From positions 2,060 to 66,059 of the forward strand of contig DASXED010000032.1 in NCBI GenBank assembly GCA_036490295.1: DNA of 64,000 nucleotides, in the 5' to 3' direction. The stretch comes from Verrucomicrobiia bacterium (GTDB taxonomy: Bacteria > Verrucomicrobiota > Verrucomicrobiia > Limisphaerales > UBA11358). A program made the position numbers and the translations under genes. The notes beneath the pieces were generated by a model. It was given only the letters and a program-made list of their open reading frames with translations, had not been told where the DNA came from and did not search any database. Shown one piece after another: positions 5,671-60,228 of the stretch (positions within the stretch are counted from its first letter, which is position 1; every line of letters starts with the position of its first letter).

Positions 5671-6489
5671 ATGAAACATTTCGACTTCACGTTTCCGACG
5701 CCCGCAAAAAATCTCGCGTGCGACGAGGCGCTGCTCGACTGGCGCGAGGAAAATAGTGGAACAGGCTTCCAGCCTGTTCATTCGAAAGGCAGGCAGGCCG
5801 GAGGCGCTGTCCCACTTTTCGGCGGCGAAGAAATCCTGCGCTTCTGGGAATCGCCTGAAACATTTGTCGTCGTCGGCTACGCGAATAAAATTGCGGCGGA
5901 AGTGAATGTTGAAAATTGCCGCGCGAAAAAAATCCCAATTTTCCGCCGTTGCTCTGGCGGCGGAACCGTTTTGCAGGGCGCGGGTTGTTTGAATTACGCG
6001 CTCATTCTGCGAATCGCCGAAAAATCCCCGCTGGCGAACATTTCCACCGCCAACCAATTCATCATGGAACGCAACCGCGCGGCGGTTCAATCGCTGCATC
6101 CCTGTTTCCAAATTGACGGCCCGGTTTTTAACATTTCGGTCATTTCAATTTCCGGCCACACCGATTTGACGATCGGCGATTTGAAATTCTCCGGCAACTC
6201 GCAGCGTCGGCGGAAAAATTTTCTGCTCTTTCACGGAACTTTTCTTTTGGAATTCAACCTCGCGCTCGTCGGCAAATTTTTGCAAATGCCGTCCAAGCAG
6301 CCGGATTACCGCAACCGCCGAGGTCATGGCGAATTTTTGATGAATTTGAATTTGTCCACTGATGAGGTGAAAGCTGCCATGCAGAAAATCTGGAAAGCAA
6401 ATGCGCCGCTCGAAAATCCGCCGCTGGAAAAAATCTTCAAGTTGGCGCGTGAAAAATATTCTTCGCGTGAATGGAACGGAAAGTTTTAA
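5671..6489 (+). CDS. lipoate-protein ligase family protein (BPL/LPL catalytic domain)
   Basis: 272-aa ORF with an RRCSGGGTV motif typical of LplA/LipB-type ligases. It is divergent from the PDH operon. Residues NSGTGFQPVHSKGRQAGGAVPL are encoded by a palindromic element. Confidence 0.7.
   Translation: MKHFDFTFPTPAKNLACDEALLDWREENSGTGFQPVHSKGRQAGGAVPLFGGEEILRFWESPETFVVVGYANKIAAEVNVENCRAKKIPIFRRCSGGGTVLQGAGCLNYALILRIAEKSPLANISTANQFIMERNRAAVQSLHPCFQIDGPVFNISVISISGHTDLTIGDLKFSGNSQRRRKNFLLFHGTFLLEFNLALVGKFLQMPSKQPDYRNRRGHGEFLMNLNLSTDEVKAAMQKIWKANAPLENPPLEKIFKLAREKYSSREWNGKF
5755..5816. repeat. paired-hairpin palindromic element (GTGGAAC subtype), intragenic and in-frame
   Basis: The left arm AGTGGAACAGGCTTCCAGCCTGTT forms a 9-bp stem (ggaacaggc/gcctgttcc). 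The right arm is degenerate and ends GTCCCACT. The first 27 nt match the copy at 10534-10560 exactly. Confidence 0.7.
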
Positions 6490-6558
6490 CTTTGTCCGCA
6501 GATCTCGCTGATCAGCATAGATTTAATGTGTGAAATCTGCGTCATCTGCGGATAAAAC

Positions 6559-7977
6559 CTAACCGCCCGCCGCCATTCCAACTCCTGTTCCCGGTTCAGT
6601 CTGGCTTTTCGGATCGAGCAACTCGTCAATTTTCTTTTTGTCGAGGCCGGAAATCTCCAGTGCCACTTCGCGGACGGTTTTGCCGGATTCGTAAGCGACC
6701 TTCGCAATTTTCGCCGCCTTGTCATAGCCGATTTCCGGCGCGAGCGACGTGCACATCGCCAGACTTTTTTCGATGTTGCTTTCGCATTTCTGCGCGTCGG
6801 CTTCCAGACCGGAAATGCAACGACGCGAAAAAACTTTGGCCGCGTTCGCCAGTAAATCAATTGCCTGAAGCAAATTATGCGCGGCGACGGGCAGCATCGT
6901 GTTCAACTCAAAATTGCCGAACGTGCCGGCGAACGTCACCGCCGCGTCGTTGCCGATGACTTGCGCGCCGACCTGAATCACCATTTCGCACATCACCGGA
7001 TTCACTTTGCCCGGCATGATGGAAGAACCCGGCTGCGTCGCCGGCAGTTTGATTTCGCCCAAACCGCAGCGCGGACCGGAACCGAGCCAGCGAACGTCGT
7101 TGGCAATTTTGATCAGGCTCACGGCAACGGTTTTCAACGCGCCGCTCGCTTCGACCAACGCATCAATTGCACTTTGCGCTTCAAAATGATTTACCGCTTC
7201 GCGCAAATTCAATTTTGTTTCGCGCGCAATGCCTTCAATCGTCCGGCGCGAAAATTCCAGATGCGTGTTGATGCCGGTTCCAACCGCCGTTCCGCCGAGC
7301 GGCAATTCGCCTAAATTTTTCCCCAAGGCTTTCAGCCGCGCGATTCCATGTTCAATCTGGCTCGCGTAACCGGAAAATTCCTGTCCGAGGCGAATCGGCG
7401 TCGCGTCCTGCAAATGCGTCCGGCCGATTTTCAAAATCGAATCAAACTCCTTTGCCTTTTTGTCGAGCGACGAATGCAATTCTTCCAGCGCAGGAATTAA
7501 ATTGTGAACGACGCCATCAAGCGCGGCCAAATGAATCGCCGTCGGAATCACGTCGTTTGAAGATTGCCCGCGATTGACGTGATCGTTTGGGTGAACGGAT
7601 TTGTCGCCGCGTTTGCCGCCGGAAATTTCGCACGCGCGATTGGCGATGACTTCGTTGACATTCATATTCGTGGAAGTGCCGGAGCCGGTTTGGAAAATGT
7701 CCACGACGAATTGCGAATCCAATTTTCCCTCGACAACTTCCTGCGCGGCTTTTTGAATCGGATCGGAAATTTTCTGCGGCAGCAAATCCAGCGACGTGTT
7801 TGCGGCGGCGGCGTATTTTTTGATCAAGCCAAGCGCGCGGATGAATTGTCGCGGAAAGCGCAGATTGCCGATCGGAAAATTTTCCACCGCGCGCGCCGTT
7901 TGCGCGCCGTAATAAGCGTCGGCGGGAATTTGCATCTGCCCCATCGAATCGGATTCAGTTCGGAATTCAGTTTTCAT
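6559..7977 (-). CDS. aspA: aspartate ammonia-lyase (fumarase/aspartase superfamily)
   Basis: It carries the GSSIMPGKVNP signature. The N-terminus SDSMGQMQIPADAYYGAQTARAVENFPI looks like aspartase. The start is placed at MKTEF (ATG at 7977), not at the 647-aa ORF start. Confidence 0.78.
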   Translation of the reverse strand: MKTEFRTESDSMGQMQIPADAYYGAQTARAVENFPIGNLRFPRQFIRALGLIKKYAAAANTSLDLLPQKISDPIQKAAQEVVEGKLDSQFVVDIFQTGSGTSTNMNVNEVIANRACEISGGKRGDKSVHPNDHVNRGQSSNDVIPTAIHLAALDGVVHNLIPALEELHSSLDKKAKEFDSILKIGRTHLQDATPIRLGQEFSGYASQIEHGIARLKALGKNLGELPLGGTAVGTGINTHLEFSRRTIEGIARETKLNLREAVNHFEAQSAIDALVEASGALKTVAVSLIKIANDVRWLGSGPRCGLGEIKLPATQPGSSIMPGKVNPVMCEMVIQVGAQVIGNDAAVTFAGTFGNFELNTMLPVAAHNLLQAIDLLANAAKVFSRRCISGLEADAQKCESNIEKSLAMCTSLAPEIGYDKAAKIAKVAYESGKTVREVALEISGLDKKKIDELLDPKSQTEPGTGVGMAAGG

Positions 7978-8058
7978 TTGCGAAAAGTTTATGCCGGACG
8001 CCCGTAAAATTCCACAAAACAAAATTGACCGCCGCATTTTCTGCGCTTCAATTGGGCA

Positions 8059-10011
8059 ATGCCAGTCCGTCGCGTCGCCGTGCAGCCGCCAAAACCGCTC
8101 ATGGTTTTTGACGGCGATTGCAATTTCTGCAAATTGTGGATTCGCCGCTGGCGGCAAATCACCGGCAACGCCGTGGATTATCTGCCGTTTCAAGATTCGC
8201 AAATCGCAAACCAATTCCCGGAAATCCCGCGCGAACAATTTCAAACTTCCGTTCAACTCATCGAACCCGGCGGCGAAGTTTTTTGCGGCGCGGAGGCAGT
8301 TTTTCTTTCGCTCGCCAAAAATCCAAAATGGCGATGGCCGTTGCACCTTTACGAAAATTTTCCGGCTTTTGCCAAATTCACGGAACGCGCCTACAAATTT
8401 GTCGCCGGACATCGAACGGGCTTTTCGCGCTTCACGCGATGGTTTTGGGGCAGGCACGTCGAGCAGCCGGATTATTTTCTCACGCGCTGGATTTTTCTGC
8501 ACGCGCTCGGCGCGATTTATCTCGTCGCGTTCATCTCACTTTGGACGCAAATCAGCGGACTCATCGGTCACAACGGCATTTTGCCGACCGATCAATTCAT
8601 TTCCGCCGTCAAACAACAATGCGACACGCAAGGCATCGGCGTGGAACGATTTCATCTGGTGCCAACTTTGTGCTGGTTTGATTCGTCCGACAGTTTTCTA
8701 AATTTCCAATGCGCCGCCGGAATTACTTTTGCAATTCTTTTAATTTTTGGAATCGCACCCGCGCCGTGCCTTGCGCTGCTTTGGCTGATTTATCTTTCAC
8801 TTTCAACTGTGGGTCGCGATTTTCTTGGCTTTCAATGGGACAATCTTTTGCTCGAAGCCGGATTTCTCGGAATTTTTTTCGCGCCACTGCAATTAGTGGC
8901 ACGGGCGTCCCGCCCGTGTGTTTCGGGCGCGGACATTGATCAAAATCAAAAACTCACGGGCGGGACGCCCGTGCCACAATCGCCGCCGCCAAAAATCGTT
9001 CTCTGGCTGCTGCGACTGCTGTTGTTCAAGCTGATTTTTTCTTCCGGCTGCGTGAAACTTTTGAGCGGCGACCCGAACTGGCGCAACCTGACCGCGCTCA
9101 CGTTTCATTATCAAACCCAGCCGCTGCCGACATGGATTGGCTGGTATGCGCAGCAATTGCCGCTGTGGTTTCAAAAATTTTCCTGCGCCGCGATGTTCAT
9201 CATCGAACTCGGCGCACCGTTCCTGATGTTTGCGCCGCGACGAATTCGATTTTTCGGCTGCGCCGCGATTGTCTTTCTGCAAATTCTGATTTTGCTGACC
9301 GGCAATTACACGTTCTTTAATTTTTTGACGATTGCGCTCTGCCTGTTGCTGCTCGACGATTTTATTTTTCAAAAAATTTTGCCGCGAAAATGGTTTGGGC
9401 GTTCTTCAATCAACCCTCAACCCTCAACCCTCGACAAATTCCGCTGGCCGTGCGCAATCATAATTCCGCTCGCGGTCGTCATTCTCTCAATTTCCGTTTT
9501 CCAAATGATTTCGATGTTTGGCGTGCGAAGCGAATTGTTATTTCCAATCGCAGTCGCCGAAGAATGGCTGCAACCGTTTCGCACGGTGAACAATTACGGC
9601 CTGTTCGCCGTGATGACAACGACGCGCAACGAAATCGTCGTCGAAGGCAGCGACGACGGCGTGAACTGGCTGCCTTACGAATTCAAATACAAACCCGGCG
9701 ACATAAATCGGCGGCCACGCTTCATCGAGCCGTTCCAACCGCGATTGGACTGGCAAATGTGGTTTGCCGCGCTGGGAAATGTCCGGCAGAATCCGTGGTT
9801 TGAAAATTTCTGTGAACGGCTGCTGCAAGGTTCGCCGGAAATTCTGGCGTTGCTGGAAAAAAATCCGTTTCCCAAACATCCGCCTCGCTACATTCGCGCG
9901 CAGCTTTATGATTATCACTTCACCACTTTCGCCGAACGCCGCGCGACCGGCGCGTGGTGGAAGCGCGAATTCACCGGCGAATACTTGCCGCCGGTTTCAC
10001 TTCCTGAATAA
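8059..10011 (+). CDS. DCC-family thiol-disulfide oxidoreductase fused to a lipase-maturation-factor (LMF1-like) membrane domain
   Basis: 650-aa ORF. The N-terminus FDGDCNFCKLW is a DUF393/DCC motif. It is followed by a polytopic membrane region and a C-terminus resembling the LMF family (PRFIEPFQPRLDWQMWFAAL). It contains a translated palindromic element. Confidence 0.65.
   Translation: MPVRRVAVQPPKPLMVFDGDCNFCKLWIRRWRQITGNAVDYLPFQDSQIANQFPEIPREQFQTSVQLIEPGGEVFCGAEAVFLSLAKNPKWRWPLHLYENFPAFAKFTERAYKFVAGHRTGFSRFTRWFWGRHVEQPDYFLTRWIFLHALGAIYLVAFISLWTQISGLIGHNGILPTDQFISAVKQQCDTQGIGVERFHLVPTLCWFDSSDSFLNFQCAAGITFAILLIFGIAPAPCLALLWLIYLSLSTVGRDFLGFQWDNLLLEAGFLGIFFAPLQLVARASRPCVSGADIDQNQKLTGGTPVPQSPPPKIVLWLLRLLLFKLIFSSGCVKLLSGDPNWRNLTALTFHYQTQPLPTWIGWYAQQLPLWFQKFSCAAMFIIELGAPFLMFAPRRIRFFGCAAIVFLQILILLTGNYTFFNFLTIALCLLLLDDFIFQKILPRKWFGRSSINPQPSTLDKFRWPCAIIIPLAVVILSISVFQMISMFGVRSELLFPIAVAEEWLQPFRTVNNYGLFAVMTTTRNEIVVEGSDDGVNWLPYEFKYKPGDINRRPRFIEPFQPRLDWQMWFAALGNVRQNPWFENFCERLLQGSPEILALLEKNPFPKHPPRYIRAQLYDYHFTTFAERRATGAWWKREFTGEYLPPVSLPE
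8895..8978. repeat. paired-hairpin palindromic element (GTGGCAC subtype), intragenic and in-frame
   Basis: GTGGCACGGGCGTCCCGCCCGTG (8896-8918) and its exact reverse complement CACGGGCGGGACGCCCGTGCCAC (8955-8977) flank a 36-nt spacer. The element is translated as VARASRPCV...TGGTPVPQ. Confidence 0.85.
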
Positions 10012-10029: not shown

Positions 10030-12342
10030 ATGAGCGAAACAACCGAAACCCGCGCCTTCAATTTCTTCACGCCGTTGCGTTTCGGCATTTTGCTCGCGCT
10101 GCTGATCTTCGCCTCGTTTCCGCAAGTCATCCTCGGCCTGCAAACTTTCATCGTCCGCGACTACGGGTTTTTTGTTTATCCGCTCGCGCATTTTCAGCGC
10201 GAATGTTTCTGGCGCGGCGAATTGCCGTTCTGGAATCCCTATAATTTTTGCGGCGTGCCGTTCCTCGCGCAATGGAACACGATGCCGCTTTATCCGCCGT
10301 CGCTGATTTATCTTTTGCTGCCGCTGGGCTGGTCGTTGAGTTTTTTCTGCCTGCTGCATTTGTGGTGGGCGGGATTCGGGATGTTTTTTCTGGCGCGAAA
10401 ATGGACTGGAAATAATTTCGCCGCCGCGTTCGCCGGAGCCGTTCTCTCATTCAACGGCTTCACGCTGAATTTGATCATGTGGCCGAGCCATCTGGCGACG
10501 TTCGCGTGGATGCCGTGGGTCGTGCTCGCGGTCAATAGTGGAACAGGCTTCCAGCCTGTTTCCGGCCACGCAGACTGGAAGTCTGCCCCACTGGTAAAAA
10601 TTATTCTCGCCGCGCTGGTCGGCGCGTTGCAAATGCTCGCGGGCGGGCCGGAAATCATTTTCTTCACCTGGATTTTGCTGCTCGCGCTGTGGATTCAACA
10701 AGCTGTGAATGCCGGATCGCCACGCGGAAAAATGCTCTGGCGTTTTCCAGTTGTCATCATGCTGGTGATTGCGCTTTCGGTCGCGCAACTTCTGCCATTT
10801 CTTGATCTCGTTTTCCATTCGCAGCGCGAATCCGGTTACGCGGACTTGCGCTGGTCAATGCCCGCTTGGGGCTGGGTGAATTTTCTCGTGCCGATGGCTT
10901 TTGGCGACACGCGGGACATGGGCGTGTTTTATCAATACGGGCAGGAATGGACTTCATCATACTACCTCGGCATCGGCGCGCTCTGGCTCGCGCTGCTGGC
11001 GTTGTGGAAAATCCGCGACCGGCGCGTGGCGCTGCTCGGTGTCATTGCAATCATCGCGCTCATTTTTGCGCTCGGAGAAAATACATTTGTTTATCCGGCC
11101 CTGCGACGGATCATTCCACAACTTCGCCTCATCACGCACTCGGCCAAATATCTGGCCATTGTGATTTTCATCGCGCCGCTGCTGGCGGCGTTTGCCGTCG
11201 CGCAGTTGCAAAATTTACAAGGTGAACAAAAGCCGGTTTTGAGAAAGCGGCTCTTTGCCATCGGAATTATTTTGCTCGCGCTGATCGCGGGAATTCTTTT
11301 CTGGGCGTGGCGGTTTCCATTTCCTGCGGACGATGTTCACCGGACTTTGCTCAATGGAATTTCGCGCGCGGCATTTTTGATTGCCACCGGCACATTGCTG
11401 TTTTTTTTGCCGCGCGACTCCAAGCCCGGCTTGCTGCGGCTCGCTCCACTGCTTTTGATTTTTGTCGCGTGGCTCGACGTTTTCACGCATGAGCCGGCGC
11501 AAAATCCGACCGCGCCGCCGTTGATTTACGAACCCGGCCTTTCGCGCGAAAAACTCGCGCTGCAACCGCAGCCCGCCCTCGGCGGCTCGCGCGCCATGAT
11601 CACGCCCTCGGCATTTGCCATGACACTCCACTTTGCGACGAGCGACCTTGGGAAAAATTATCTGGTGAACCGCATGGCTTGTTTTTCCGACTGCAACCTG
11701 CTCGACGACGTGCCGAAAACGGACGGCTTCCTTTCGCTCTGCCCGCGCGAAGCCGACGACGTGAACACGCTGCTTTACGACTCCACCAACGCGAATTTTC
11801 CGCGTCTCGAGGATTTCATGGGCGTCTCGCAAATCACCGCGACAAATGAAATTTACGAGTGGCAATCGCGCAAAACCTTCCTGCCGCTCGTGACCGCCGG
11901 GCAAAAGCCATTTTTCTTTGACGACTACAGCGCATGGTATGCGCTGTCGCAAACCAATTTCGACGGAGGCAAGTTTGTTATTTTGCCAGAAGACGCGAAG
12001 ACTTTTGTGACGGTCACAAATCAAACCAATGCCCGCGTGCTCAATTCAAAATTCGGGACGCAAACCGTGGACGCCGAAGTCGAAGCCGCCGCGCCGTCGC
12101 TCGTCGTCATCGCGCAAACATGGTATCACGACTGGCGCGCTTACGTTGATGGCAAGCCGACGACTTTGCTGCGGGCGAATTATGCGTTTCAGGCGGTGCA
12201 AGTTCCGGCGGGCAGGCACAAAATCCATTTAGCCTACGAAGACCGCGCGTTTGAAATCGGCGCGGCGATTTCAATTCCCGCATGGCTCGGCTGCTTGATT
12301 GTCTGTTTCAACTGCAGTTGGAAAAAGCGATCAGTTGAATAA
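10030..12342 (+). CDS. YfhO-like polytopic membrane protein (putative glycosyltransferase)
   Basis: 770-aa ORF with many TM segments. The N-terminal region (FWRGELPFWNPYNFCGVPFLAQWNT) resembles the YfhO family. Confidence 0.6.
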   Translation: MSETTETRAFNFFTPLRFGILLALLIFASFPQVILGLQTFIVRDYGFFVYPLAHFQRECFWRGELPFWNPYNFCGVPFLAQWNTMPLYPPSLIYLLLPLGWSLSFFCLLHLWWAGFGMFFLARKWTGNNFAAAFAGAVLSFNGFTLNLIMWPSHLATFAWMPWVVLAVNSGTGFQPVSGHADWKSAPLVKIILAALVGALQMLAGGPEIIFFTWILLLALWIQQAVNAGSPRGKMLWRFPVVIMLVIALSVAQLLPFLDLVFHSQRESGYADLRWSMPAWGWVNFLVPMAFGDTRDMGVFYQYGQEWTSSYYLGIGALWLALLALWKIRDRRVALLGVIAIIALIFALGENTFVYPALRRIIPQLRLITHSAKYLAIVIFIAPLLAAFAVAQLQNLQGEQKPVLRKRLFAIGIILLALIAGILFWAWRFPFPADDVHRTLLNGISRAAFLIATGTLLFFLPRDSKPGLLRLAPLLLIFVAWLDVFTHEPAQNPTAPPLIYEPGLSREKLALQPQPALGGSRAMITPSAFAMTLHFATSDLGKNYLVNRMACFSDCNLLDDVPKTDGFLSLCPREADDVNTLLYDSTNANFPRLEDFMGVSQITATNEIYEWQSRKTFLPLVTAGQKPFFFDDYSAWYALSQTNFDGGKFVILPEDAKTFVTVTNQTNARVLNSKFGTQTVDAEVEAAAPSLVVIAQTWYHDWRAYVDGKPTTLLRANYAFQAVQVPAGRHKIHLAYEDRAFEIGAAISIPAWLGCLIVCFNCSWKKRSVE
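10537..10592. repeat. paired-hairpin palindromic element (GTGGAAC subtype), intragenic and in-frame
   Basis: AGTGGAACAGGCTTCCAGCCTGTT is followed by GCAGACTGGAAGTCTGCCCCACT. Both arms can form hairpins. The element is translated as SGTGFQPVSGHADWKSAPL. Confidence 0.75.
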
Positions 12343-18351: not shown

Positions 18352-18396
18352 AAATTTTATTCACGCAAAGTCGCAAAGCCCGCAAAGTAAATTCAA

Positions 18397-19362
18397 TCAA
18401 GCCAGAACCGCAATTTCTTTGCGCTCTTTGCGACTTTGCGTGAGTATTTTTCTTTTCAAAGCCAGATCAATCATTCGCTGGCACAATTCTTCGTAACTCA
18501 ATCCCGCCGCAGCCGCAGCTTTCGGCAATAAACTTGTTTCCGTCATTCCGGGCAACGTGTTCACTTCCAGCACGACTGGCTCGCCATTTTTGCGAACCAT
18601 CACGTCCACGCGCGCATAATCGCGTCCGCCAATCGCATGAAATGCGCCGAGCGCAGCGGCTTGAATTTTCTTTGTTGTCGCTGCATCAAACTCCGCCGGG
18701 CAAAAATATTCCGTGCAACCAGATGTATATTTATTTTTGTAATCGTAACTGCCAACTTTTGGCCGGACTTCGACAACCGGCAGCGCAATGCCGTCCAAAA
18801 TCCCCACCGTCGTCTCACGCCCGACGATTTTTTCCTCGACCAAAACTTCCGAATCAAATTTCAACGCTTCCGCCAGCGCATTTTGCCAGTCTTCCGCGCG
18901 CTCGACAAATTGCAGACCGACGCTCGAACCCTGCCGCACCGGTTTCACGACCAGCGGCAATCGCAAATCTTCCGGCAGCGGCGCTTTTTCCGAACTGACG
19001 ACCACAAATTTCGCCGTCGGCACGCCGGCCGCGATGCACTTTTGTTTCGTCAAAACCTTGTCGAACGCGATGCGGCTCGCTTCCGAATCGCAGCCCGTGT
19101 AAAGCACGCCGAGTTGCGCCAGTTGCCGCTGCACCGTGCCGTCCTCGCCGTAAGTTCCGTGCAACGGCGCGAGGCAGACGACCTCCGTGTCCGGCGGCAA
19201 AATCCAGTCCGGCGTTTTGGGATCCAGCTCGACCACCGTGTGACCGAGCGACCGCAACGCCTTCACCACGCCCGCGCCCGACCGCAACGACACTTCGCGC
19301 TCGGCGCTTGGGCCGCCGAGCATCACCACAATTTTTAATTTTTTATGCACGATGGAATTCAA
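18397..19362 (-). CDS. ddl: D-alanine--D-alanine ligase
   Basis: 321-aa ATP-grasp protein with GGPSAEREVSL, HGTYGEDGTVQ and EVNTLPGMT. Confidence 0.93.
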   Translation of the reverse strand: MNSIVHKKLKIVVMLGGPSAEREVSLRSGAGVVKALRSLGHTVVELDPKTPDWILPPDTEVVCLAPLHGTYGEDGTVQRQLAQLGVLYTGCDSEASRIAFDKVLTKQKCIAAGVPTAKFVVVSSEKAPLPEDLRLPLVVKPVRQGSSVGLQFVERAEDWQNALAEALKFDSEVLVEEKIVGRETTVGILDGIALPVVEVRPKVGSYDYKNKYTSGCTEYFCPAEFDAATTKKIQAAALGAFHAIGGRDYARVDVMVRKNGEPVVLEVNTLPGMTETSLLPKAAAAAGLSYEELCQRMIDLALKRKILTQSRKERKEIAVLA

Positions 19363-19364
19363 AA

Positions 19365-20438: not shown

Positions 20439-20840
20439 TCACTTCACAAATTTTTCCAGCGAGACGGCAATTTTCGGAAACGCGCGCAAAACCTGTTTGT
20501 CCGCCGTCACCAACGGCACGCCCAAATCCTGCGCCAGCGCCACATATTCGCAGTCGTAAGCCGTGCAATCGGATGCCAGCACCAGCTTGATGATCCGCTC
20601 GGTCGGCACGGAATATTCATTCGCGCCCAAATCTTTCTGGACATTCAGATAGGCGGCGTTGGCCTCGGCCTCGGTCAATGTTTGTCTTCGTAAATATCCC
20701 GCCAACACATTCCGAAATTCCGCGCGCCACAAAATTGGCGACGCCCAAACTTTGTCGCGGTCTTTTACGGCTTCCGTTAATTCCGCAAAGTCGCTAGGCA
20801 GCCAGAAATAAACCAGCACGCTGTTGTCCACGACAATCAC
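20439..20840 (-). CDS. vapC: type II toxin VapC (PIN-domain ribonuclease)
   Basis: 133 aa with PIN acidic residues (VVDNS, TAYDCEY, VTADKQ). It overlaps the upstream antitoxin gene by 4 nt. Confidence 0.88.
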   Translation of the reverse strand: MIVVDNSVLVYFWLPSDFAELTEAVKDRDKVWASPILWRAEFRNVLAGYLRRQTLTEAEANAAYLNVQKDLGANEYSVPTERIIKLVLASDCTAYDCEYVALAQDLGVPLVTADKQVLRAFPKIAVSLEKFVK

Positions 20841-21076
20841 GCGCGACCTTCTTCCTTGAAACGTTTCAAATCCGCCGCCGTCACCTTGAACTTGAGCGAA
20901 TTGCGGAACTGGCGCGCCCGCTGAATGATTCCCTCGGCCTCGACCGGCACGCTGCGGACGCTGGATTCCAAAACAGCAATGGCTTCGCTGTTCAAACTCC
21001 GGCGGTGTTCTGCCGCGCGTTTTTTTAATTCACGGTGCGTTTCTTTCGGAATGCCTTTAAGAGTCATTGTTATCAT
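20837..21076 (-). CDS. vapB: type II antitoxin, Arc/FitA-like ribbon-helix-helix (VapB)
   Basis: 79 aa. MTLKGIPKETHRELKKRAAEHRRSLNSEAIAVLE is typical of the FitA/VapB RHH N-terminus. Confidence 0.8.
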   Translation of the reverse strand: MITMTLKGIPKETHRELKKRAAEHRRSLNSEAIAVLESSVRSVPVEAEGIIQRARQFRNSLKFKVTAADLKRFKEEGRA

Positions 21077-21133: not shown

Positions 21134-22087
21134 TTAATTGTCTTCGCCGACGATTTCGACTTCCGTGTGCAATTCGATTCCGCGTTCGGCTTTCGCCTTG
21201 GTCTTCAAGATTGAAATCAATTCCAAAATGTCGCGCGCCGTCGCCTTGCCGTCGTTCACGATGAAATTGCCATGTTCGGCGGAAACCACCGCGCCGCCCA
21301 CACGCGCGCCCTTCAATCCCAGTTCGTCCACCAGCCGGCCCGCCGGGATCGCGCCGGGATTTTTGAAGATGCAACCCGCGCTCGGCGCCGCCGGCTGCGA
21401 TCCCCAGCGCTTCTCGTTGAACGCCTTCATGCGCCGCTCGATCTCCGCGCGCGGCAAAGTCCGGCATCGGAAAACCGCGCCCAGCGCGATGTGATTCTTC
21501 AACGCCGCGCAACTGCGATAATCCACGGACATTTGTTTTGGTGACATTTCAGAAATGTTGCCGTCAAAATCCATCACGCGCACCGACTCGACGACATCGA
21601 ACGTCGCGCCGCCCATCGCTCCCGCGTTCATCCGCAACGCACCGCCGACGCTGCCGGGAATGCCTTCGAGAAATTCCACGCCGCTCAAATTGTTCCGCTT
21701 CGCCTCGACCGAGACATTCTTCAATTTCGCGCCCGCGCCGCAAAAAATTTGCTCTCCAACAATTTCAATCTTGCTGAAATGCGATTGCGACAAACAAATC
21801 ACCACACCGCGAAAACCACCGTCGCGCACGAGCAGATTCGAGCCGCGCCCGAGAATGAAAAATTTGATTCCGTTTTCACTGCAAAACTTCACGATGTTCG
21901 CCAAATCATCTTCGTTCGCCGGCTCGACATAAATATCCGCCGGCCCACCGACGCGCAACGTCGTGTGCTTTGCCATCGGCTCGTCGCGACGAACCATCGT
22001 CGCGCGCGAAACGCGCCCGGCAATTTCATCCGCGATATTTTTCTCAATTCGCATCGGATTTTTCAAAATGTCAGTCGTCAGCGTCAT
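21134..22087 (-). CDS. murB: UDP-N-acetylenolpyruvoylglucosamine reductase
   Basis: 317 aa with an FAD-binding domain (HTTLRVGGPADIYVEP, GRGSNLLV) and a C-terminal MurB domain. Confidence 0.93.
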   Translation of the reverse strand: MTLTTDILKNPMRIEKNIADEIAGRVSRATMVRRDEPMAKHTTLRVGGPADIYVEPANEDDLANIVKFCSENGIKFFILGRGSNLLVRDGGFRGVVICLSQSHFSKIEIVGEQIFCGAGAKLKNVSVEAKRNNLSGVEFLEGIPGSVGGALRMNAGAMGGATFDVVESVRVMDFDGNISEMSPKQMSVDYRSCAALKNHIALGAVFRCRTLPRAEIERRMKAFNEKRWGSQPAAPSAGCIFKNPGAIPAGRLVDELGLKGARVGGAVVSAEHGNFIVNDGKATARDILELISILKTKAKAERGIELHTEVEIVGEDN

Positions 22088-43359: not shown

Positions 43360-43431
43360 GGAGCGCGGCATTCATGCCGCTTCACCGTTCAAAGCAATTG
43401 CGGTGTTGAAGCGGGCTAAAGCCCGCGCCCC
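43360..43431. repeat. paired-hairpin palindromic element (GGAGCGC/GGGGCGC subtype), intergenic
   Basis: GGAGCGCGGCATTCATGCCGCTTC is followed by GAAGCGGGCTAAAGCCCGCGCCCC. Each arm can form a hairpin. Confidence 0.65.
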
Positions 43432-44620: not shown

Positions 44621-44985
44621 GTCAGCACTGCCAGGCGCGGCATATTTGTGGGATTGAAATTAAAAACGGATCAAGCTGCGGAGCAGCGGAAGAAAGTAGC
44701 CTACGGTGTCAACCGTGGGATTTGAGCATCAAAAAATCAAGCTCCGGCAGGAGCGGCAGAAAAATTGCCGTGAAATTATATTTATTCTTTCGCCCCGTCC
44801 GGGGCTTGCGCCGTTCCGGCGATTGACCCACGGTTTCACCGTGGGCTACTTTCGGACGCGCCTTCCGGCGCTGAAAACAGCACCGTCAGGTGCGGCATAT
44901 TTGTAGAATGGAATCCCAATGACGAATAAAGCTCCGTAGGAGCGGAATCGGCGGCGGAAGATGCCGCTCCTACGGAGCTTTGGTT
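44621..44985. repeat. cluster of REP-like hairpin units (several subtypes)
   Basis: Direct repeats gca(c)ygyCAGGYGCGGCATATTTGT at 44625 and 44879. Hairpins gctgc-gga-gcagc, gctcc-ggca-ggagc and gctcc-gta-ggagc. An inverted pair GTAGCCTACGGTGTCAACCGTGGG / CCCACGGTTTCACCGTGGGCTAC. A perfect inverted pair aagctccgtaggagcgg / ccgctcctacggagctt. Confidence 0.75.
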
Positions 44986-45437
44986 TTGGGTGGCGCGGGG
45001 GCTACACCGCCGTAGCCCAAGCCGTTCAAGCCTCCTGCTGCCGCGCCAATGGTTGCACCGGCTGTCAAACCACCCATTGCTCCACCCCAGCCAGCATAAA
45101 GAGAATCATGCAAGGCGGACGGGTCTGCTTTGCCGACGTAAAGAATGTTCGCTTGAAGAATATAAAAGGCGTCCTGCGGATTAGAGACAAGTGCGTAACC
45201 GTTGGCTTCAAGTTTTTGTTTGAGAAGCGCCTCAATGCTGACGTCTTTGTCCGACGTGTTTTTAACTTGAACAAAAATGGTGTTGGTCTGACGTTTTTCA
45301 ACGTCGAGGAAAACGGTTGCCGACATTTTGGTCTGCACGTCGAGGTCTTTGTGTTCAAGAGCGACTTCAGTAGCGGCACAGCCCGCAAGAAGTGGGAGCA
45401 TAAGAAATGCGGACAATGTTTTGAGAATTGTTTTCAT
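44970..45437 (-). CDS. traT: TraT-like surface-exclusion/complement-resistance lipoprotein, C-terminally truncated
   Basis: 155 aa with the lipobox LLAGC. The sequence LEHKDLDVQTKMSATVFLD...IFVQVKNTSDKDVS...YILQANILY parallels enterobacterial TraT as I remember it. The stop codon lies inside a repeat unit. Confidence 0.7.
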   Translation of the reverse strand: MKTILKTLSAFLMLPLLAGCAATEVALEHKDLDVQTKMSATVFLDVEKRQTNTIFVQVKNTSDKDVSIEALLKQKLEANGYALVSNPQDAFYILQANILYVGKADPSALHDSLYAGWGGAMGGLTAGATIGAAAGGLNGLGYGGVAPAPPKTKAP

Positions 45438-45450
45438 ATTCGTGCAAGGT

Positions 45451-45711
45451 TCACTTTTGATATTCCTTCATCTTTTCGGCCATTTTAGTTGCCATCAATT
45501 CAGCGTGCCGTTCCAGCATTTCTCGCTTGTAAGTGAATCCGGCATGGCCGACAGCCAACGCCCAAAATACGACGCCAACTATGAAGAGAACGATAGTGGC
45601 CGCGAAAAGAACTGCCATGCCATAAAGTATTGAATTGAGAATGAAGCCGCCCCATTTCTTGCGAGCCAAAAAATAGACGGGTGGAGCGAAGATTATGCAG
45701 AGATACATCAT
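45451..45711 (-). CDS. small two-TM membrane protein (possibly superinfection-immunity-like)
   Basis: 86 aa, ending 13 nt upstream of the traT-like gene. The pattern FAPPVYFLARKKWGGFILNSIL weakly recalls the Imm superinfection family. Confidence 0.45.
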   Translation of the reverse strand: MMYLCIIFAPPVYFLARKKWGGFILNSILYGMAVLFAATIVLFIVGVVFWALAVGHAGFTYKREMLERHAELMATKMAEKMKEYQK

Positions 45712-50600: not shown

Positions 50601-51979
50601 TCGCCAACGGCGGCAACATTTCCGGCGCAACTACCAATGTGTTGAAAATCACGGCGGCGACGACCAACAACGCCGGCAATTACGATCTCGTCGTGACCAA
50701 CGCCTACGGCTCCGTCACCAGCAGCGTGGCGGCGCTGACGATCGCCCTTCCGCCGACGATAACCGGTTCGCTGACAAACCAGACCGTCGAGTGCGGCGGC
50801 AACGCCACGTTTGCGATCACCGCCTCCGGCACGCCGCCGTTGATCTGCCAGTGGAGTTTGAACAACGCGGTCATCAGCGGCGCGACCAACACCAGTTTCT
50901 CATTGTCCGGCGTCCATCCGCCGGGTTACACGATTGGCGTCAGCGTCACCAATCTTTACGGCGGCGTGAGCAGCAACGCGACGTTGACGGTTCACGACAC
51001 GACCGCGCCGATGATCACATTGAATGGCGGCAATCCGATTTATCTTGAACTGGGCAACGCATTCACCGACCCCGGCGCGACGGCCAGCGACGTTTGCGCG
51101 GGTCCGGTTCCTGTTTCCACCAGCGGAACTGTCAATGTCAACGCGGTCGGAACGAACACGCTGACTTACACCGCCGACGACGGCAACGGCAACACCAACA
51201 CCGCCACGCGCACCGTCATCGTGCGCGACACCACGCCGCCGGCGATTTTGTGGAGCTTCACGAATCTGGTTTTGGCGGCGGACACGAATTGCAGCGCGCA
51301 AATGCCGGACGTGACAGGAACAAATTATATTCTCGCAACTGATTTGTCCGGCGCGCTGGCAATTTCGCAAAGTCCGACGAACAATGCGATTTTGCCGCTG
51401 GGAACAAACGTCGTGATTGTCACGGTCACGGATGCTTCGGGCAACGCCGCTTTTTCGACCAACACAATTATCGTTCAGGACCAAACGCCGCCGCAAATTT
51501 TGAGCCAGCCGCAAAGCCTGACGAACCTTGTCGGCACGACCGCGAATTTCAGCGTCGCCGCGACCGCCTGCACGCCGCTCGCATATCAATGGTTTTTCAA
51601 CAGCGGCATTTTGGCCGACCAGACCAACTACGCGCTGGCGATTGTCTTTGCAAGCGCCACCAATGCCGGAAATTATTCCGTGGTCGCCAGCGCGTCCGGC
51701 AGTTCCACCACCAGCATCGTCGCCACGTTGACGGTGAATCTGATTCCGCCCGGCATCGCCCCGAATCCCGCCATCAACGCCGACGGCAGTTTCATTTTGA
51801 ACCTCACCGGCTCGCCCGGCTACACCTACATTTTGGAAACGACGACCAATCTTTCGTCGTCAGCCAATTGGCGGCCCGTCGTCACCAACACGCTCGGCAC
51901 CAACGGCGTCTGGCAATTCAACGACACGCAAGCGACCAATTTCCTGCAACGGTTTTACCGCCTCAAGTTTGAGCAATAA
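47690..51979 (+). CDS. secreted sedolisin (peptidase S53) with pro-kumamolisin activation domain and multiple Ig-like/HYR-like domains
   Basis: 1429 aa with a GTG start and a signal peptide. The pro-domain has LSLAIGLPLRNRDALDKLLREIYDPASPNFHHYLTPEEF. The catalytic Ser context is VGGTSIATPLWAG. Long C-terminal Ig-like repeats follow. Confidence 0.85.
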   Translation: MIQTGAFKFQRLFFAAGIVAALFFSSGASAQTSSRKFLRGHVPSAIANFNLQPVERLPATNSLNLAIGLPLRNRDALDKLLREIYDPASPNFHHYLTPEEFTENFGPTENDYQRVIDFAEANGLKVTRTYPNRVVLDVNGPVTSIEKAFQVNMNVYQHPTKNRTFFAPDVEPSVDSDVPILDISGLNNFAPPHPNLQPKPMNQLANVTAKSGSGPFGNYWGNDFRSAYVPDTSLAGYGQALGLLEFDGFYSNDIVSYENQSGLPVVPLQTNLLDAVSGSPGFSGIANAVVEVSLDIEVAVAMAPGLSKVIIYEGAAANDILSQMASDNQAKQLSTSWSWDTTTNATTDQLFQQFAAQGQSFFDASGDSDAYPAGTATGEPNDNPYITIVGGTTLTTSGESWSSETAWNWGFVSSAGADIGTSGGVSTFYKIPSWQTNANPAAAGGSAVKRNIPDVALTADNVWVIYGNGQIASVGGTSIATPLWAGFTALVNEQSVSAGRSTVGFINPAIYAIAAGTNYAADFHDITTGNNTNSASPAKFFAGAGYDLCTGLGTPAGQNLITGLAGPPDPLGITPAADFAASGPIGGPFSATNWNFSLTNLGTASLNWTLASTTSWLQASSSGGALSPGDPATTITVSLNAAANNLPVGIYNATIWFTNQTSGVVQSRHFTLQAIQPLAVSPATGFAAVGAVGGPFNVTSQDFSLTNIGGATLNWGVINTSLWLNAASSGGTLTPGGNDMVTVSLNSAANNLAAGIYNATIWFTNQTAGGAQAEQFQLLVGQPLVQNGGFETGDFTGWTLVGDGGNINFVTGSFRIARNDNFTPHSGNYAAALGEPSTLAYLSQTLPTVAGQLYLISLWMDSPDGQTPNEFSVSWNGNTLFDLVNAGKLGWTNLQFTVKATDSSAVLQFGASDYSTYLGLDDVSVTPISAPTLTVQPTNLTVFAGSNAVFSATANGSAPLVYHWRKNGANLANGGNISGATTNVLKITAATTNNAGNYDLVVTNAYGSVTSSVAALTIALPPTITGSLTNQTVECGGNATFAITASGTPPLICQWSLNNAVISGATNTSFSLSGVHPPGYTIGVSVTNLYGGVSSNATLTVHDTTAPMITLNGGNPIYLELGNAFTDPGATASDVCAGPVPVSTSGTVNVNAVGTNTLTYTADDGNGNTNTATRTVIVRDTTPPAILWSFTNLVLAADTNCSAQMPDVTGTNYILATDLSGALAISQSPTNNAILPLGTNVVIVTVTDASGNAAFSTNTIIVQDQTPPQILSQPQSLTNLVGTTANFSVAATACTPLAYQWFFNSGILADQTNYALAIVFASATNAGNYSVVASASGSSTTSIVATLTVNLIPPGIAPNPAINADGSFILNLTGSPGYTYILETTTNLSSSANWRPVVTNTLGTNGVWQFNDTQATNFLQRFYRLKFEQ

Positions 51980-52046
51980 ATTTTGGCGGGGCGGGCATCC
52001 CCGCGAGCCGCTTGCCCCGCGCGTCAAAAAAAAGCAACATGGCCGC

Positions 52047-53468
52047 GTGACCGATTTGCTCCAGCGCGTCGAAAATTCAATCCAAGATCGCAAACTGCTA
52101 AAACGCGGACAAAAAATCCTCGTCGCCGTTTCCGGCGGACTGGACTCGATGGTTTTGCTTCACGCGCTGGAAAAACTTTCCGCGCGGCACAAATGGAAAA
52201 TTGCCATCGCGCATTTCAATCACAAATTGCGCGGACGCGCCAGCGACGCGGATGAAAAGCTCGTCCGCAAAACGGCGGCGGCGATGAAGCTGCCGATTAC
52301 CGCTGAAAGCGCAGATGTGAAATTATTCGCCAAAAAATCAAAGCTTTCAATCGAAATGGCCGCGCGAAAACTGCGCCATGAATTTTTCGTGCGCGCCGCG
52401 CGGGAAAGAAAAATTCAAACCATTGCGCTGGCGCATCACGCGGACGATCAAATCGAACTTTTTTTCCTGCGGCTTTTGCGCGGCGCGGGCGGCGAAGGTT
52501 TGGCGGGAATGAAATGGGAGTCGCCGTCGCCCACCGACAAAACAATTGCACTCGTCCGCCCGCTGCTGGATTTTTCAAAAAACGAACTGGCGGAATTCGC
52601 GCGGAAAAACAAAATCCATTTCCGGGACGACTTGACGAATTTTTCCACCGATTTTTTGCGAAACAGGATTCGTAACGAATTGTTGCCGCTGCTGCGAAAA
52701 GATTATCAGCCGGGTTTGAACAAAACAATTTTACGCGTGATGGAAATCACCGGCGCGGAATCGGAATTTGCTGGCGCAGTGGCACGGGCGGGACGCCCGT
52801 GCGTTTCAAAAAACCGGCCACGCGTGGAATTGGAAACACACGGGCGGGACGCCCGTGCCACTGCGTTTGATTTTGAAAAATCGCCCGTTGCGGTTCAGCG
52901 GCGCGTTTTGCAATCGCAACTTGCGGAACTTGGCGTGATTGCGGATTTTGAATTGGTTGAACAGCTTCGAGAGACTTCTGAAAAATTTGTGAGCGTCGGT
53001 TCCGGCTTGTCCGTTTCGCGTGACAAGAGCGGCAAATTGAAATTGCGAAAACAGCAATCGGCGGAATTTAACACGCAAGAACTTGAATTGAACCTGTCCG
53101 GCGGAGCGCGCGGCGTGGATTTTGGCGGCATGAAATTAAATTGGCGTTTTATCAGCGGCTCGCGGGGACGCTCGCCCCGCCAAATCGGGCGCGAACTTTT
53201 TGACGCGGATAAAATCGGGAACAAAATCATTTTACGCCACTGGCGCGCGGGCGACCGTTTTCAGCCGATTGGTTTGAAATCGGCAGTGAAGTTGCAGGAT
53301 TTGTTCACGAATGCAAAAATTCCACGCGAACGGCGTCGTGAATTGATTTTGGCGGAAATCATTCGCGGCGAAATTTTTTGGGTGGAAGGTTTGCGGATTT
53401 CCGAAAATTTCAAAATCACGCCGCAGACGAAACGGCGTTTGATTTGGTGTTGGCAAACTCAAGGTTAA
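52047..53468 (+). CDS. tilS: tRNA(Ile)-lysidine synthase
   Basis: It has the PP-loop motif VAVSGGLDS. The start is tentatively placed at the GTG at 52047. The ORF stays open back to 51969, across a GC-rich hairpin region at 51985-52025. It contains a translated palindromic element. Confidence 0.85.
   Translation: MTDLLQRVENSIQDRKLLKRGQKILVAVSGGLDSMVLLHALEKLSARHKWKIAIAHFNHKLRGRASDADEKLVRKTAAAMKLPITAESADVKLFAKKSKLSIEMAARKLRHEFFVRAARERKIQTIALAHHADDQIELFFLRLLRGAGGEGLAGMKWESPSPTDKTIALVRPLLDFSKNELAEFARKNKIHFRDDLTNFSTDFLRNRIRNELLPLLRKDYQPGLNKTILRVMEITGAESEFAGAVARAGRPCVSKNRPRVELETHGRDARATAFDFEKSPVAVQRRVLQSQLAELGVIADFELVEQLRETSEKFVSVGSGLSVSRDKSGKLKLRKQQSAEFNTQELELNLSGGARGVDFGGMKLNWRFISGSRGRSPRQIGRELFDADKIGNKIILRHWRAGDRFQPIGLKSAVKLQDLFTNAKIPRERRRELILAEIIRGEIFWVEGLRISENFKITPQTKRRLIWCWQTQG
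52778..52862. repeat. paired-hairpin palindromic element (GTGGCAC subtype), intragenic in tilS
   Basis: GTGGCACGGGCGGGACGCCCGTG (52779-52801) and CACGGGCGGGACGCCCGTGCCAC (52839-52861). It is translated as VARAGRPCV...THGRDARAT. Confidence 0.85.
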
Positions 53469-59197: not shown

Positions 59198-59270
59198 GTA
59201 GCAGTCAACGTGAGTTGGCTCATAATTTTTCTGATAATTTTAATTGGAGCGGACTAACGTCCGCTGCTAC
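59198..59270. repeat. paired-hairpin palindromic element (GTAGCAG subtype), intergenic
   Basis: GTAGCAGTCAACGTGAGTTGGCTCA is followed by GGAGCGGACTAACGTCCGCTGCTAC. A half-unit lies at 59287-59310. Confidence 0.75.
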
Positions 59271-59805: not shown

Positions 59806-60007
59806 GTCGCCTAAAAACTTAATAGGCTACAAAACTTTCACACCTTTCAGACTTTTCCGTCCGCAGTTTTGATTCCGGCCATCGCGTTTTGCGAGAGGCG
59901 CGCGGCTTCATAAATTCTTCGCGGAGAATTTCCCCCGGATGAACCGGCGTCAGTTTGTTCGTTTTCATAATGTTCAATGGTAAATGATTAAATGAGTTTT
60001 AAGAAAG

Positions 60008-60082
60008 TGGCGACCCTATCGGGAATCGAACCCGAGCTACCGCCGTGAAAGGGCAGTGTCCTAACCGCTAGACCATAGGGTC
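60008..60082 (-). tRNA. tRNA-Glu (anticodon UUC)
   Basis: 75-nt cloverleaf, read as the reverse complement: GACCCTA TG GTC TAGCGGTTA GGAC A CTGCC CTTTCAC GGCGG TAGC TCGGG TTCGATT CCCGA TAGGGTC G CCA. It closely parallels bacterial tRNA-Glu. Confidence 0.92.
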
Positions 60083-60146
60083 GTCAAAGAGCGCGCCAAT
60101 ATAATCATCTTTCAACCGCTGTCACGCAAATTTCAAATCATTATGC

Positions 60147-60228
60147 GTAGCAGCCGGCGTGAGTCGGCTCATTTTTTCCTTTTTCCACTGAAATTCAAAA
60201 GTCAGAGCGAACTCACGTTCGCTGCTAC
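60147..60228. repeat. paired-hairpin palindromic element (GTAGCAG subtype), intergenic
   Basis: GTAGCAGCCGGCGTGAGTCGGCTCA (60147-60171) and AGAGCGAACTCACGTTCGCTGCTAC (60204-60228). Confidence 0.78.

Follow-up and report, generated by a model that had tools for sequence, protein, structure and literature searches.

Paired palindromic repeats within conserved genes of a Verrucomicrobiia bacterium: probable GTAG-tagged REPs that survive in frame

A 64,000-nucleotide stretch of contig DASXED010000032.1, from a Verrucomicrobiia bacterium (hereafter the window), contains a set of short paired palindromes that are found both between genes and, in frame, within conserved genes such as murF, murG and tilS. 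We consider it likely that these elements are GTAG-tagged repetitive extragenic palindromes (REPs) in tail-to-tail pairs, moved by a REP-associated tyrosine transposase (RAYT), and that the copies within genes are in-frame survivors in tolerant loops. Coordinates are positions of the whole stretch, and L followed by a number denotes a locus from another genome or assembly. The original prediction spoke of at least 13 copies and at least seven genes but listed only 12 copies and six genes. Direct reading of the sequence finds the described paired hairpins at all 12 listed coordinate pairs, and further copies lie at 2841-2890, 6491-6556, 18358-18446, 40498-40559, 44674-44719 with 44827-44872, 44928-44981 and 61742-61806; the copy at 18358-18446, in the C-terminal tail of ddl, supplies the seventh gene.

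The main family has the form (T)A-GTGG-CACGGGCG-TCY-CGCCCGTG-(A/T/C)GTTTC, a variable centre, then GAAAC-CACGGGCG-GRA-CGCCCGTG-CCAC-T(A). The arms are polar units, each with a GTGG head, an 8-bp stem and a TCY loop, and the paired units stand tail to tail. The heads, stems, loops and inverted pairing can all be read directly in the sequence, which bears out the original description of paired inverted hairpins. The 27 units of the window have GC-rich stems of 7-8 bp (one of 9 bp) and loops of 3-5 nt, while the head is unpaired: GTGG in the main family and GTAG in the units at 2867, 40515, 44696/44827, 59198 and 60147. Of 245 units from the window and other genomes, 198 have TCC or TCT as their loop when read from the head. 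Four of the 245 have the inverted loop GGA, and the left arm of the tilS copy (52779-52801) is the sole GTGG unit of the window that has it. Sub-family stems are AACAGGCT, GGCAGACT, CGCGGGCA and CGCAGGCG, and other families in the window have heads of the GTAG kind (GTAGCAG..., GTAGCGTCGAG..., GTAGCC...).

In a scan for GT[AG]G-headed hairpins, nearly all GTGG units of the window stand in +/− pairs. The two arms of a pair are 81-97% complementary across 26-36 nt, and the minimum-free-energy fold of most copies is one long hairpin. The window holds eight GTGG-type pairs, or nine with the mixed GTGG/GTAG pair at 2841-2890, and about ten elements of other families. The AGTGG-to-CCACT spans of 51, 63, 81 and 84 nt that had been counted by hand are correct, although the 84-nt copy ends in CCACA; the remaining GTGG-type spans are 62, 56, 85 and 88 nt. 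The GTGG-type elements, and a palindrome of another type that shares murG with one of them, are given below, where z compares single-stranded DNA folding with shuffled controls.

27569-27649, within murF (27001-28470, − strand): GTGG-type REP pair, tail to tail, 81 nt, residues 274-301 VVARASRPCVSENVGSLNELTGETPVPL; z = -10.0 (MurF site 2)
28205-28267, within murF: GTGG-type REP pair, 63 nt, residues 68-89 VVARASRPCVDEKLTGKMPVPL; z = -8.05 (MurF site 1)
22738-22788, within murG (22084-23307, − strand): GTGG-type REP pair, 51 nt with a 3-nt spacer, residues 174-190, the two arms differing in stem (CGCGGGCA vs CGCAGGCG); z = -5.6
22140-22196, within the non-conserved C-terminal tail of murG: GTTGG-headed palindrome ('LKPELQ' type), residues 371-390; z = -4.7
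52778-52862, within tilS (51969-53468, + strand): GTGG-type REP pair, 85 nt, residues 270-298 AVARAGRPCVSKNRPRVELETHGRDARAT; z = -5.5
8895-8978, within a DCC1-like/LMF1 fusion gene (8059-10011, + strand): GTGG-type REP pair, 84 nt, residues 279-307; z = -12.1
10537-10592, within a YfhO-like membrane protein gene (10030-12342, + strand): GTGG-type hetero-pair with arms GTGGAACAGGCTTCCAGCCTGTT and GTGGGGCAGACTTCCAGTCTGC, residues 170-188; z = -4.4
5755-5816, within an LplA-like gene (5671-6489, + strand): GTGG-type unit with a degenerate partner arm, residues 29-49; z = -1.95, left hairpin intact
30849-30936, between an rsmH/mraW-like ORF (open reading frame; 30935-31876, − strand) and the downstream ftsL/ftsI region: GTGG-type REP pair, 88 nt; z = -8.15
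2841-2890, between the pyruvate dehydrogenase E1 and E2 genes: GTGG- and GTAG-headed units, GTGGCGTCGGCGC... and GTAGCGTCGAGTCTGCGGCTCGAC

The pattern AGTGG-N41-71-CCACT occurs five times in the window against 0.26 expected, and none of 100 shuffles reached five. Matches to AGTGGNNCRGGC with at most one mismatch number 27 (5.4 expected), and GT[AG]G-headed GC-rich hairpin units also number 27, against about nine in shuffles. The proposed comparison of folding with shuffled controls came out in favour of the hairpins: most elements fold far better than the controls, with z from -3.9 to -12.1 in 14 of 16 (10 of 12 in the first-listed set). The exceptions are 5755-5816, the right arm of which has decayed, and 43360-43431 (z = -3.0). 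Rfam contains no family for the GTGG unit and gave only sub-threshold matches to miRNA-like hairpins.

As had been predicted, the intragenic copies stay open in the host frame. All eight (LplA-like, DCC1/LMF1, YfhO-like, MurG twice, MurF twice, TilS) lie within uninterrupted ORFs, and Pfam domains span or flank every insert. The LplA-B_cat match, residues 11-234, spans the insert at 5755-5816; the 8895-8978 insert lies within the LMF1 match, in which residues 257-436 (180 residues) align to 159 profile positions; and the MurG insert at 22738-22788 falls between two GT28 domains, Pfam ending at residue 146 and resuming at 199. MurF is matched by Mur_ligase (26-107) and Mur_ligase_M (117-327), and TilS by PP-loop and TilS_C.

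The consensus unit is free of stops in five of its six reading frames, which yield SGTGVSPV, WHGRLAR, SRARRPCH, THGRDARAT and LTGETPVPL; in the sixth (VARASRP-stop), the TGA of ...CCCGTGAGTT acts as a stop. This sixth frame is used by four arms, two in murF and one each in the LMF1 gene and tilS, and all of them have TGT or TGC rather than TGA, which matches the prediction of selection for an open reading frame. The distal arms have TGA in both murF copies and in the LMF1 copy and TGT in tilS, and the intergenic copy at 30849 has TGA in one arm and TGC in the other. The frame filter, the open frames and a structure model (below) together suggest that the inserts are translated. An example of a predicted peptide across an insert junction is ...FRVVARASRPCVSENVGSLNELTGETPVPLQDF...

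The inserts in MurF, MurG and TilS are derived, because orthologues 65-89% identical to the window proteins do not have them, an outcome of the orthologue alignment that had been suggested as a check. Alignments with structures from the PDB were too distant to place the insert borders in these three proteins, and close orthologues were used instead. Among 119 MurF orthologues, 74-88% identical, most read RVQTAKE[EN]FCGEYRINL at site 2, where the window reads RV-VARASRPCVSENVGSLNELTGETPVPL-QDFCGEYRINL, and most read VVE[KQ]KKIPAQLPxCAVL at site 1, where the window reads VV-ARASRPCVDEKLTGKMPVPL-L. Comparison of the DNA shows site 2 to be empty in L001 and L002; the site-1 insert is present in L001, and L125-L127 have native sequence there. 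The site-2 loop has taken up at least three separate insertions within about 15 nt (the window/L124 type, L125 and L127). At the internal MurG site (22738-22788), L001 has native QPRDAADCRAAL. MurG is 407 residues long in the window vs 391 in L001, L124 and L126, and its C-terminal tail is unlike that of L001. About a third of 119 TilS orthologues are without an insert at this place, having the shortest loops (35-39 residues in the aligned stretch) and reading GAESDFVGAAAA-IQKNDFENSP. The other TilS alleles have the window type or peptides of other repeat families, at least three repeat-derived types in total; one of these, VASSLRLDLVRPQAE (VASSLRLD...), belongs to the GTAGCGTCGAGTCTGCGGCTCGAC family, which is found in the window at 2867-2890.

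MurF site 1 also harbors other repeats. In L002 (10001-11395) and L124 (6001-7467) it holds an in-frame run of CAAAGTC heptamers (EKSKVQSPKSKV), and in other relatives it reads GTARCADRTPQRGV or SAFRRSAAPPEGGTP; several unrelated repeat types thus share this loop.

The loops of MurF are where the inserts were expected to map. In an AlphaFold2 model of the window MurF (mean predicted local distance difference test score, pLDDT, 82.4), the only segments below 50 are residues 74-78 and 279-298. These fall in the two inserts, which lie in loops between conserved strands, site 1 between strands 66-70 and 89-92 and site 2 between 270-275 and 306-310. The MurF inserts are therefore predicted to be disordered.

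Both the phenomenon and the family have already been published. The original prediction knew of no equivalent description for this lineage, but intragenic REPs of the GTAG-19 family were reported from Opitutus terrae in 2013 (PMC3733652). Di Nocera, De Gregorio & Rocco (2013, BMC Genomics 14:522; PMC3733652) divide prokaryotic REPs into GTAG-tagged and CGTC-tagged superfamilies and, for O. terrae PB90-1, list 70 intragenic REP monomers or dimers in their Additional file 3. In one O. terrae family the GTAG head is mostly GTGG, and family 19 is found mainly as tail-to-tail dimers; the intragenic REPs code for 7-30 residues, more than half being dimers that code for 20-30, and some genes have two (PMC3733652). 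The GTAG-19 peptides are GTGVPPV, GTGVSPV, VARASRP, GARASRP, HGRDARAT, TGGTPVP and WHGRLAR, with dimers such as GTGVPPVDSGSASDDHGRDARAT (PMC3733652). REPs of the GTAG superfamily are recognized as palindromes of 20-40 bp with stems of 5-13 bp and GTRG heads, GTGG being accepted; they have many dispersed copies and frequent inverted dimers, and a RAYT gene flanked by its own REP forms a REPtron (PMC3733652).

The window units agree with this superfamily in palindrome and stem size, in the GTGG or GTAG head and in inverted pairing. The O. terrae GTAG-19 peptides equal the window peptides in corresponding frames, and the two sets are alike in phylum, GTGG head, tail-to-tail dimers, peptides and the occurrence of genes with two inserts. 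The main family of the window thus appears to match GTAG-19; we infer identity at the DNA level from the peptides and from unit matches in metagenome-assembled genomes (MAGs) of Opitutaceae. The hosts differ, however, GTAG-19 being from Opitutales and the window from an uncultured member of the Verrucomicrobiae, probably Limisphaerales. The window inserts also hit cell-wall and tRNA-modification genes (murF, murG, tilS and the ddl tail), unlike the GTAG-19 set of O. terrae. The host order and the gene set hit are new here, to which the compensatory retention of hairpins in five orthologous MurF copies and the finding of a 23-nt unit in at least seven labelled phyla (both below) are modest additions.

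Resemblance to other repeat systems is partial. The analogy with Rickettsia palindromic elements (RPEs) drawn in the original prediction is sound in that both are palindromic repeats in frame in conserved genes. Ogata et al. reportedly described the Rickettsia elements in frame in 2000, in proteins still thought to be functional, and RPE-1 is longer, roughly 100-150 bp. The likeness is one of in-frame behaviour and not of family. The RPEs are probably unrelated in sequence, and they have obligate intracellular alphaproteobacterial hosts. RPE-4 and RPE-6 belong to the CGTC-tagged superfamily, which is without a known dedicated transposase (PMC3733652), and the window units depart from that type in both head and stem. 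The REPs of E. coli and the BIMEs (bacterial interspersed mosaic elements) that they form are alike in having imperfect palindromes, a GTAG-type head, inverted pairs and a RAYT (yafM/b0228 type). They are extragenic, and interactions with integration host factor, gyrase and DNA polymerase I are known. REPs and RAYTs were reportedly also treated by Nunvar et al. (2010).

REPINs consist of two inverted REPs in one longer hairpin, the whole doublet, including a conserved spacer, being replicated (Bertels & Rainey 2011, PMC3116915). They are non-autonomous and are inherited vertically along with a Y1 transposase, usually present as a single copy, which lies between REPs and mobilizes them in trans (PMC3116915). 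The window pairs are similar in that two inverted REPs with a GTAG-like head form a larger hairpin, but their spacers range from 3 to 40 nt and vary in sequence. Classical REPINs are moreover extragenic and described mainly in Gammaproteobacteria, whereas many of the window copies are intragenic.

On the accepted model, GTAG REPs owe their movement to a RAYT, a Y1 HUH transposase of IS200/IS605 type that acts in trans from a gene lying between REPs (PMC3116915). The original suggestion of such a transposase fits the head and hairpin of the window units and the REP-flanked RAYTs found in other genomes. Among 80 RAYT genes from a metagenome scan with a RAYT alignment, 31 have GT[AG]G-headed hairpins on both sides with the heads facing outward, and a GTGG-headed unit adjoins the gene in nine, on both sides in seven of these. 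The RAYT gene of L196 lies between GGTGGGGCAGACATTCCTGTCTGCC units with a GTGG head and a TTCC loop, which are one compensated stem pair and one loop base apart from the window arm GTGGGGCAGACTTCCAGTCTGC (10570-10591). Since these RAYTs lie between outward-facing REPs, a tail-to-tail pair of the window has the shape of a REPtron minus its gene. Two further RAYT genes are flanked in this way, in L123 between GTAGGGCCTGAGC... and ...GCTCGAGCCCTAC and in L131 between GTAGGGTCGGCGCTTGCGCCGACC and its complement; their flanking families (GTAGGGC... and GTAGGGTCGGCGC...) are not present in the window. Two other leads to a transposase were discarded. Oter_2468, the RAYT of O. terrae, has only 25 relatives in the protein database, and those in L123 and L131 are flanked by GTAG families other than the main one; the small genes between neighbouring REP pairs in L010, L086, L037 and L109 are not transposases.

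In the mechanism that we propose, a Y1 (HUH) transposase of RAYT type, with its gene outside the window, would recognize the head and hairpin in single-stranded DNA and copy the units to new sites. Copies land both within and between genes. Selection would then purge those that break the frame, bear a stop or fall in structured regions, leaving the in-frame copies that are observed in loops and tails. The survivors would be translated as disordered loops of 17-28 residues, as the open frames and the structure model suggest. After insertion, the pairing of the hairpins persists while the peptide drifts, and neighbouring native loop residues are often gone.

Several results weigh against this account. 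The window and 122 loci (120 from the pattern scan described below, with L001 and L002) were searched by phmmer, using 11 published RAYT/TIRYT sequences and all ORFs of 80 aa or more. No RAYT was found in the window or in the 120 loci with CACGGGCG units, and the sole match was a partial ORF of TIRYT-like sequence, which lies at the edge of L101 and 4 kb away from the REP. In the metagenome scan, the exact CACGGGCG core was beside none of the 80 RAYT genes. Because no RAYT was found with this core, the transposase of the main family is one that we infer. The spacers of the window copies vary from 3 to 40 nt and also in sequence, the shared part being about 6 nt beside each stem, while classical REPINs move as a conserved unit; the window pairs may form from single units or lose their spacers quickly. 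All four of the inserts compared replace 12-42 nt of native loop sequence and are not plain additions, which cut-and-paste does not predict. The independent insertions in L125 and L127, a few bases away, retain native residues, and we read the replacement as a probable trimming of the native loop after insertion, the alternative being loss during insertion itself. Finally, a rough neighbour-joining tree of MurF intersperses alleles that have the old site-2 insert with empty ones. The filled alleles have the same borders and the same spacer and have lost QTAK, while the empty ones all retain QTAKE; the window MurF is 89% identical to empty alleles vs 77-85% to other filled alleles. Because QTAKE would not be restored by simple loss of the insert, the scatter could have arisen through recombination between lineages.

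The main-family unit is not confined to this genome. When one genome per species (596 Gb) was scanned for exact matches to GTGGCACGGGCGNNNCGCCCGTG, at least 120 stretches (L003-L122) were recovered, where the taxa are those of the MAG record titles. The unit is present on the chromosome OY969416.1 of an uncultured member of the Verrucomicrobiae. By label, these are Planctomycetota (46), Verrucomicrobiota (36), Acidobacteriota (20), Hydrogenedentota (4), Sumerlaeota (3), 'Zipacnadia' (2), Armatimonadota (1), Ignavibacteria (1), Microcoleus (1) and unclassified (6). Among the matches listed, MAGs with the labels of at least seven phyla carry the 23-nt unit GTGG-CACGGGCG-NNN-CGCCCGTG, a tail-to-tail partner lies no more than 120 nt away from 56 of 133 units, and 72 of 133 lie in an ORF of at least 150 aa, the last figure being an upper bound since GC-rich DNA has long spurious ORFs. 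By a rough estimate, about ten or fewer chance matches to 20 specified bases would be expected in 596 Gb, and chance does not explain the pairing. Pfam matches confirm in-frame copies in two CarB proteins from Planctomycetota (L068, L117), one verrucomicrobial LigA (L093) and the tail of an acidobacterial Ser/Thr kinase (L018). The occurrence of one unit in at least seven labelled phyla fits poorly with strictly vertical inheritance of REP/RAYT systems.

The original prediction held that the stems are under selection for structure rather than sequence. Given that stems covary while the encoded peptide changes, this is a fair reading. In 198 units from across genomes, picked by head, 5' half-stem and loop only, 116 stem positions depart from the CACGGGCG consensus; 82 are compensated by a Watson-Crick partner, 14 are G-T, and in 22 the partner is unchanged. 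A controlled series is provided by the MurF site-2 insert in the window, L124, L128, L129 and L130, whose murF genes are 76-84% identical. Identical borders and a recognizably common spacer, which is conserved among orthologous copies only, indicate that these five represent one old insertion. In this series, pairing is kept in 98.1% of cells, and both sides have changed in 5 of 21 pairs. Neither the paired fraction nor the covariation score was attained in any of 500 shuffles, the count of pairs changed on both sides was attained in 7 of the 500, and registers slid out of place gave 23-52% paired. Stem position 4 in both arms is G-C in the window, A-T in L124, L128 and L129, and an unpaired A opposite G in L130; at stem position 8, G-C, T-A and A-T all occur. 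In the outermost pair, A-T gives way to G-T and then to G-C. Meanwhile the peptide drifts, ARASRPC becoming AQASSLC or AQASRLC and TGETPVP becoming TGKMPVP.

The same pattern can be produced by repair templated on the hairpin or by conversion between arms. Each arm is itself a palindrome, so the two arms are direct repeats and can template each other, and either process allows compensation in the absence of selection. In L130 (1835-1915), both arms have the identical T-to-G change (CGCCGGTG) and both hairpins the identical A-G mismatch, a double change that suggests copying between arms and not independent mutation. Mismatches on the head strand, tallied to distinguish pairing at the RNA level from pairing at the DNA level, comprise 18 G-T and 11 A-C, with no significant strand bias.

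These results bear on two further ideas. The first, which we put forward tentatively and think may well not hold, is that intragenic REP hairpins are actively maintained, with one REP/RAYT system crossing phyla, re-templating its copies and remodelling surface loops of essential enzymes. It draws on the retention of MurF pairing through at least four compensated double changes at 76-84% identity and on the cross-phylum 23-nt unit. The second, an unlikely one in our judgement, is that the hairpins are kept for a role in the host at the RNA or DNA level, such as stabilization or processing of transcripts, a translational pause between domains, or a site for gyrase or a nucleoid protein. The compensated stems beneath a changing peptide (ARASRPC to AQASSLC) and the presence of the 23-nt unit in MAGs labelled as many phyla are what such a role would lead one to expect, and Di Nocera et al. 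argued that many REPs act as RNA elements (PMC3733652). However, templated repair or arm conversion gives compensation of the kind seen in L130, the mismatches have no clear strand bias, most orthologues do well with no insert, and the positions of the inserts vary by gene and lineage with no common functional context.

[quoted passage not shown] If the elements were IS630/Tc1-mariner-type MITEs that insert at TA and duplicate it, the termini would be AGTGGCACGGGCG..., and five of the eight GTGG-type pairs in the window do read TA-GTGG...CCAC-TA; a hypothetical ancestor of MurF site 2, CGG GTA CAA GAT, would even permit an in-frame TA insertion of 81 nt. We regard this origin as very improbable. 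TAGTGG and CCACTA are reverse complements, so that the flanking T and A can equally be the end of the inverted repeat, and the outermost A and T of the five orthologous copies shift together as a base pair (A-T, G-T, G-C). The extant empty MurF alleles all lack TA at the insertion point, and the shorter loop that the hypothetical ancestor requires is found in none of 120 aligned MurF proteins. The independent insertions in L125 and L127 are flanked by TA/TG and CA/GA, respectively; in L125, the T of the TG after CCCAC is also present in empty alleles and looks native there. Target-site duplications are undefinable among the inserts compared, which are all old and without adjacent native sequence. 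The GTAG or GTGG head with its hairpin is a RAYT signature, RAYT genes have been found between such units, and no IS630-like ORF was noticed on reading the translations of the window ORFs. A TA target site is not supported, on evidence limited to old insertions.

The recurrence of the same peptides in many proteins might suggest ancestral protein sequence or a protein repeat motif selected as peptide. This is barely credible, as one DNA unit is read in at least four frames or orientations (SGTGVSPV, VARASRP, HGRDARAT, TGETPVP) and is also intergenic, while the segments are missing in close orthologues, are predicted to be disordered, and vary in peptide as stem pairing is kept. Least plausible of all is an artefact of assembly or binning: although the contig, of about 66 kb, is metagenome-assembled and repeats can mislead assemblers, matching inserts occur at matching sites in independent assemblies of other samples (MurF site 1 in L001; site 2 in L124 and L128-L130), the reading frames remain open, and the phenomenon is documented in the finished O. 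terrae genome (PMC3733652).

The window also harbors palindromes of other types, as follows.

43360-43431, upstream of bioB: intergenic paired-hairpin element, GGAGCGCGGC type; z as above
44674-44719 (− strand) and 44827-44872 (+ strand): inverted pair of GTAGCC-headed units, each matching Rfam RF01687 (Acido-Lenti-1)
44928-44981, intergenic: AGCTCCGTAGGAGCGG-family palindrome; z = -7.2
61742-61806, intergenic: AGCTCCGTCAGGAGCGG-family palindrome; z = -9.6
59198-59270, intergenic: GTAGCAG-headed REP pair; z = -3.9
60147-60228, between a tRNA gene (60011-60082, − strand) and the likely start of ilvE (~60284): GTAGCAG-headed REP pair; z = -4.4
18358-18446, at the end of ddl (18397-19362, − strand): CGCAAAG-type palindrome, the right arm coding the last ddl residues ...LTQSRKERKEIAVLA; z = -9.4
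6491-6556, between convergent LplA-like and fumarase-like genes: palindrome; z = -4.55
40498-40559, upstream of leuA: palindrome with a GTAG-headed unit (40515-40538)

The two RF01687 matches, 107 nt apart, score 46.9 and 35 bits (gathering score 37). The 5' hairpin of RF01687 followed by GGCUAC reads as a GTAG-headed REP unit on the opposite strand, and for this reason the Rfam entry, filed as an sRNA of unknown function and not as a repeat, may be a REP-type repeat. It is distinct from the family of GTGG-CACGGGCG units.

Several gene ends coincide with elements. The last ~16 residues of Ddl (...ILTQSRKERKEIAVLA) are coded by the right arm and spacer of the CGCAAAG-type palindrome and form a C-terminal extension. 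The stop codon of the rsmH/mraW-like ORF, TAG at 30935-30937, arises at the border of the REP pair from the flanking T and the AG of AGTGG. On the + strand, an ORF at 30890-31999 starts within the 30849-30936 element (VHRLHSQRTGGTPVPL...) and looks spurious, and the ORF at 44961-45488 (+), MPLLRSFG..., begins within the AGCTCCGTAGGAGCGG palindrome and is probably also spurious. The ORF at 60143-61150 (+), MRSSRRESAHFF..., begins within the GTAGCAG pair; it is ilvE, the true start of which is likely near 60284.

Other features lie in the division and cell wall (dcw) cluster. After murB, the window has a PIN-domain (VapC-like) ORF and a small antitoxin-like ORF (20439-21076, − strand), and L126 has a FitA-like/PIN pair in the matching place. 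A SIMPL-domain gene lies between ftsI and murF in L001 (3273-4001), L124 (5268-5996) and L127 (5265-5996); it is not found between these genes in the window (28470-28477), L002, L125 or L126.

The basic picture published in 2013 is unchanged by the present findings (PMC3733652). For annotation, the repeats lengthen real genes, yield spurious ORFs (30890-31999, 44961-45488) and shift apparent starts and stops (rsmH, ddl, ilvE), and knowledge of the family aids correct annotation of MAGs of Verrucomicrobiota, Planctomycetota and Acidobacteriota. The inserts also amount to a natural scan of insertion-tolerant loops in essential enzymes (MurF, MurG, TilS, CarB and LigA), and the orthologous MurF series offers a controlled case of hairpin maintenance within coding sequence. 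The presence of a single unit across phyla challenges a strictly vertical view of REP/RAYT systems.

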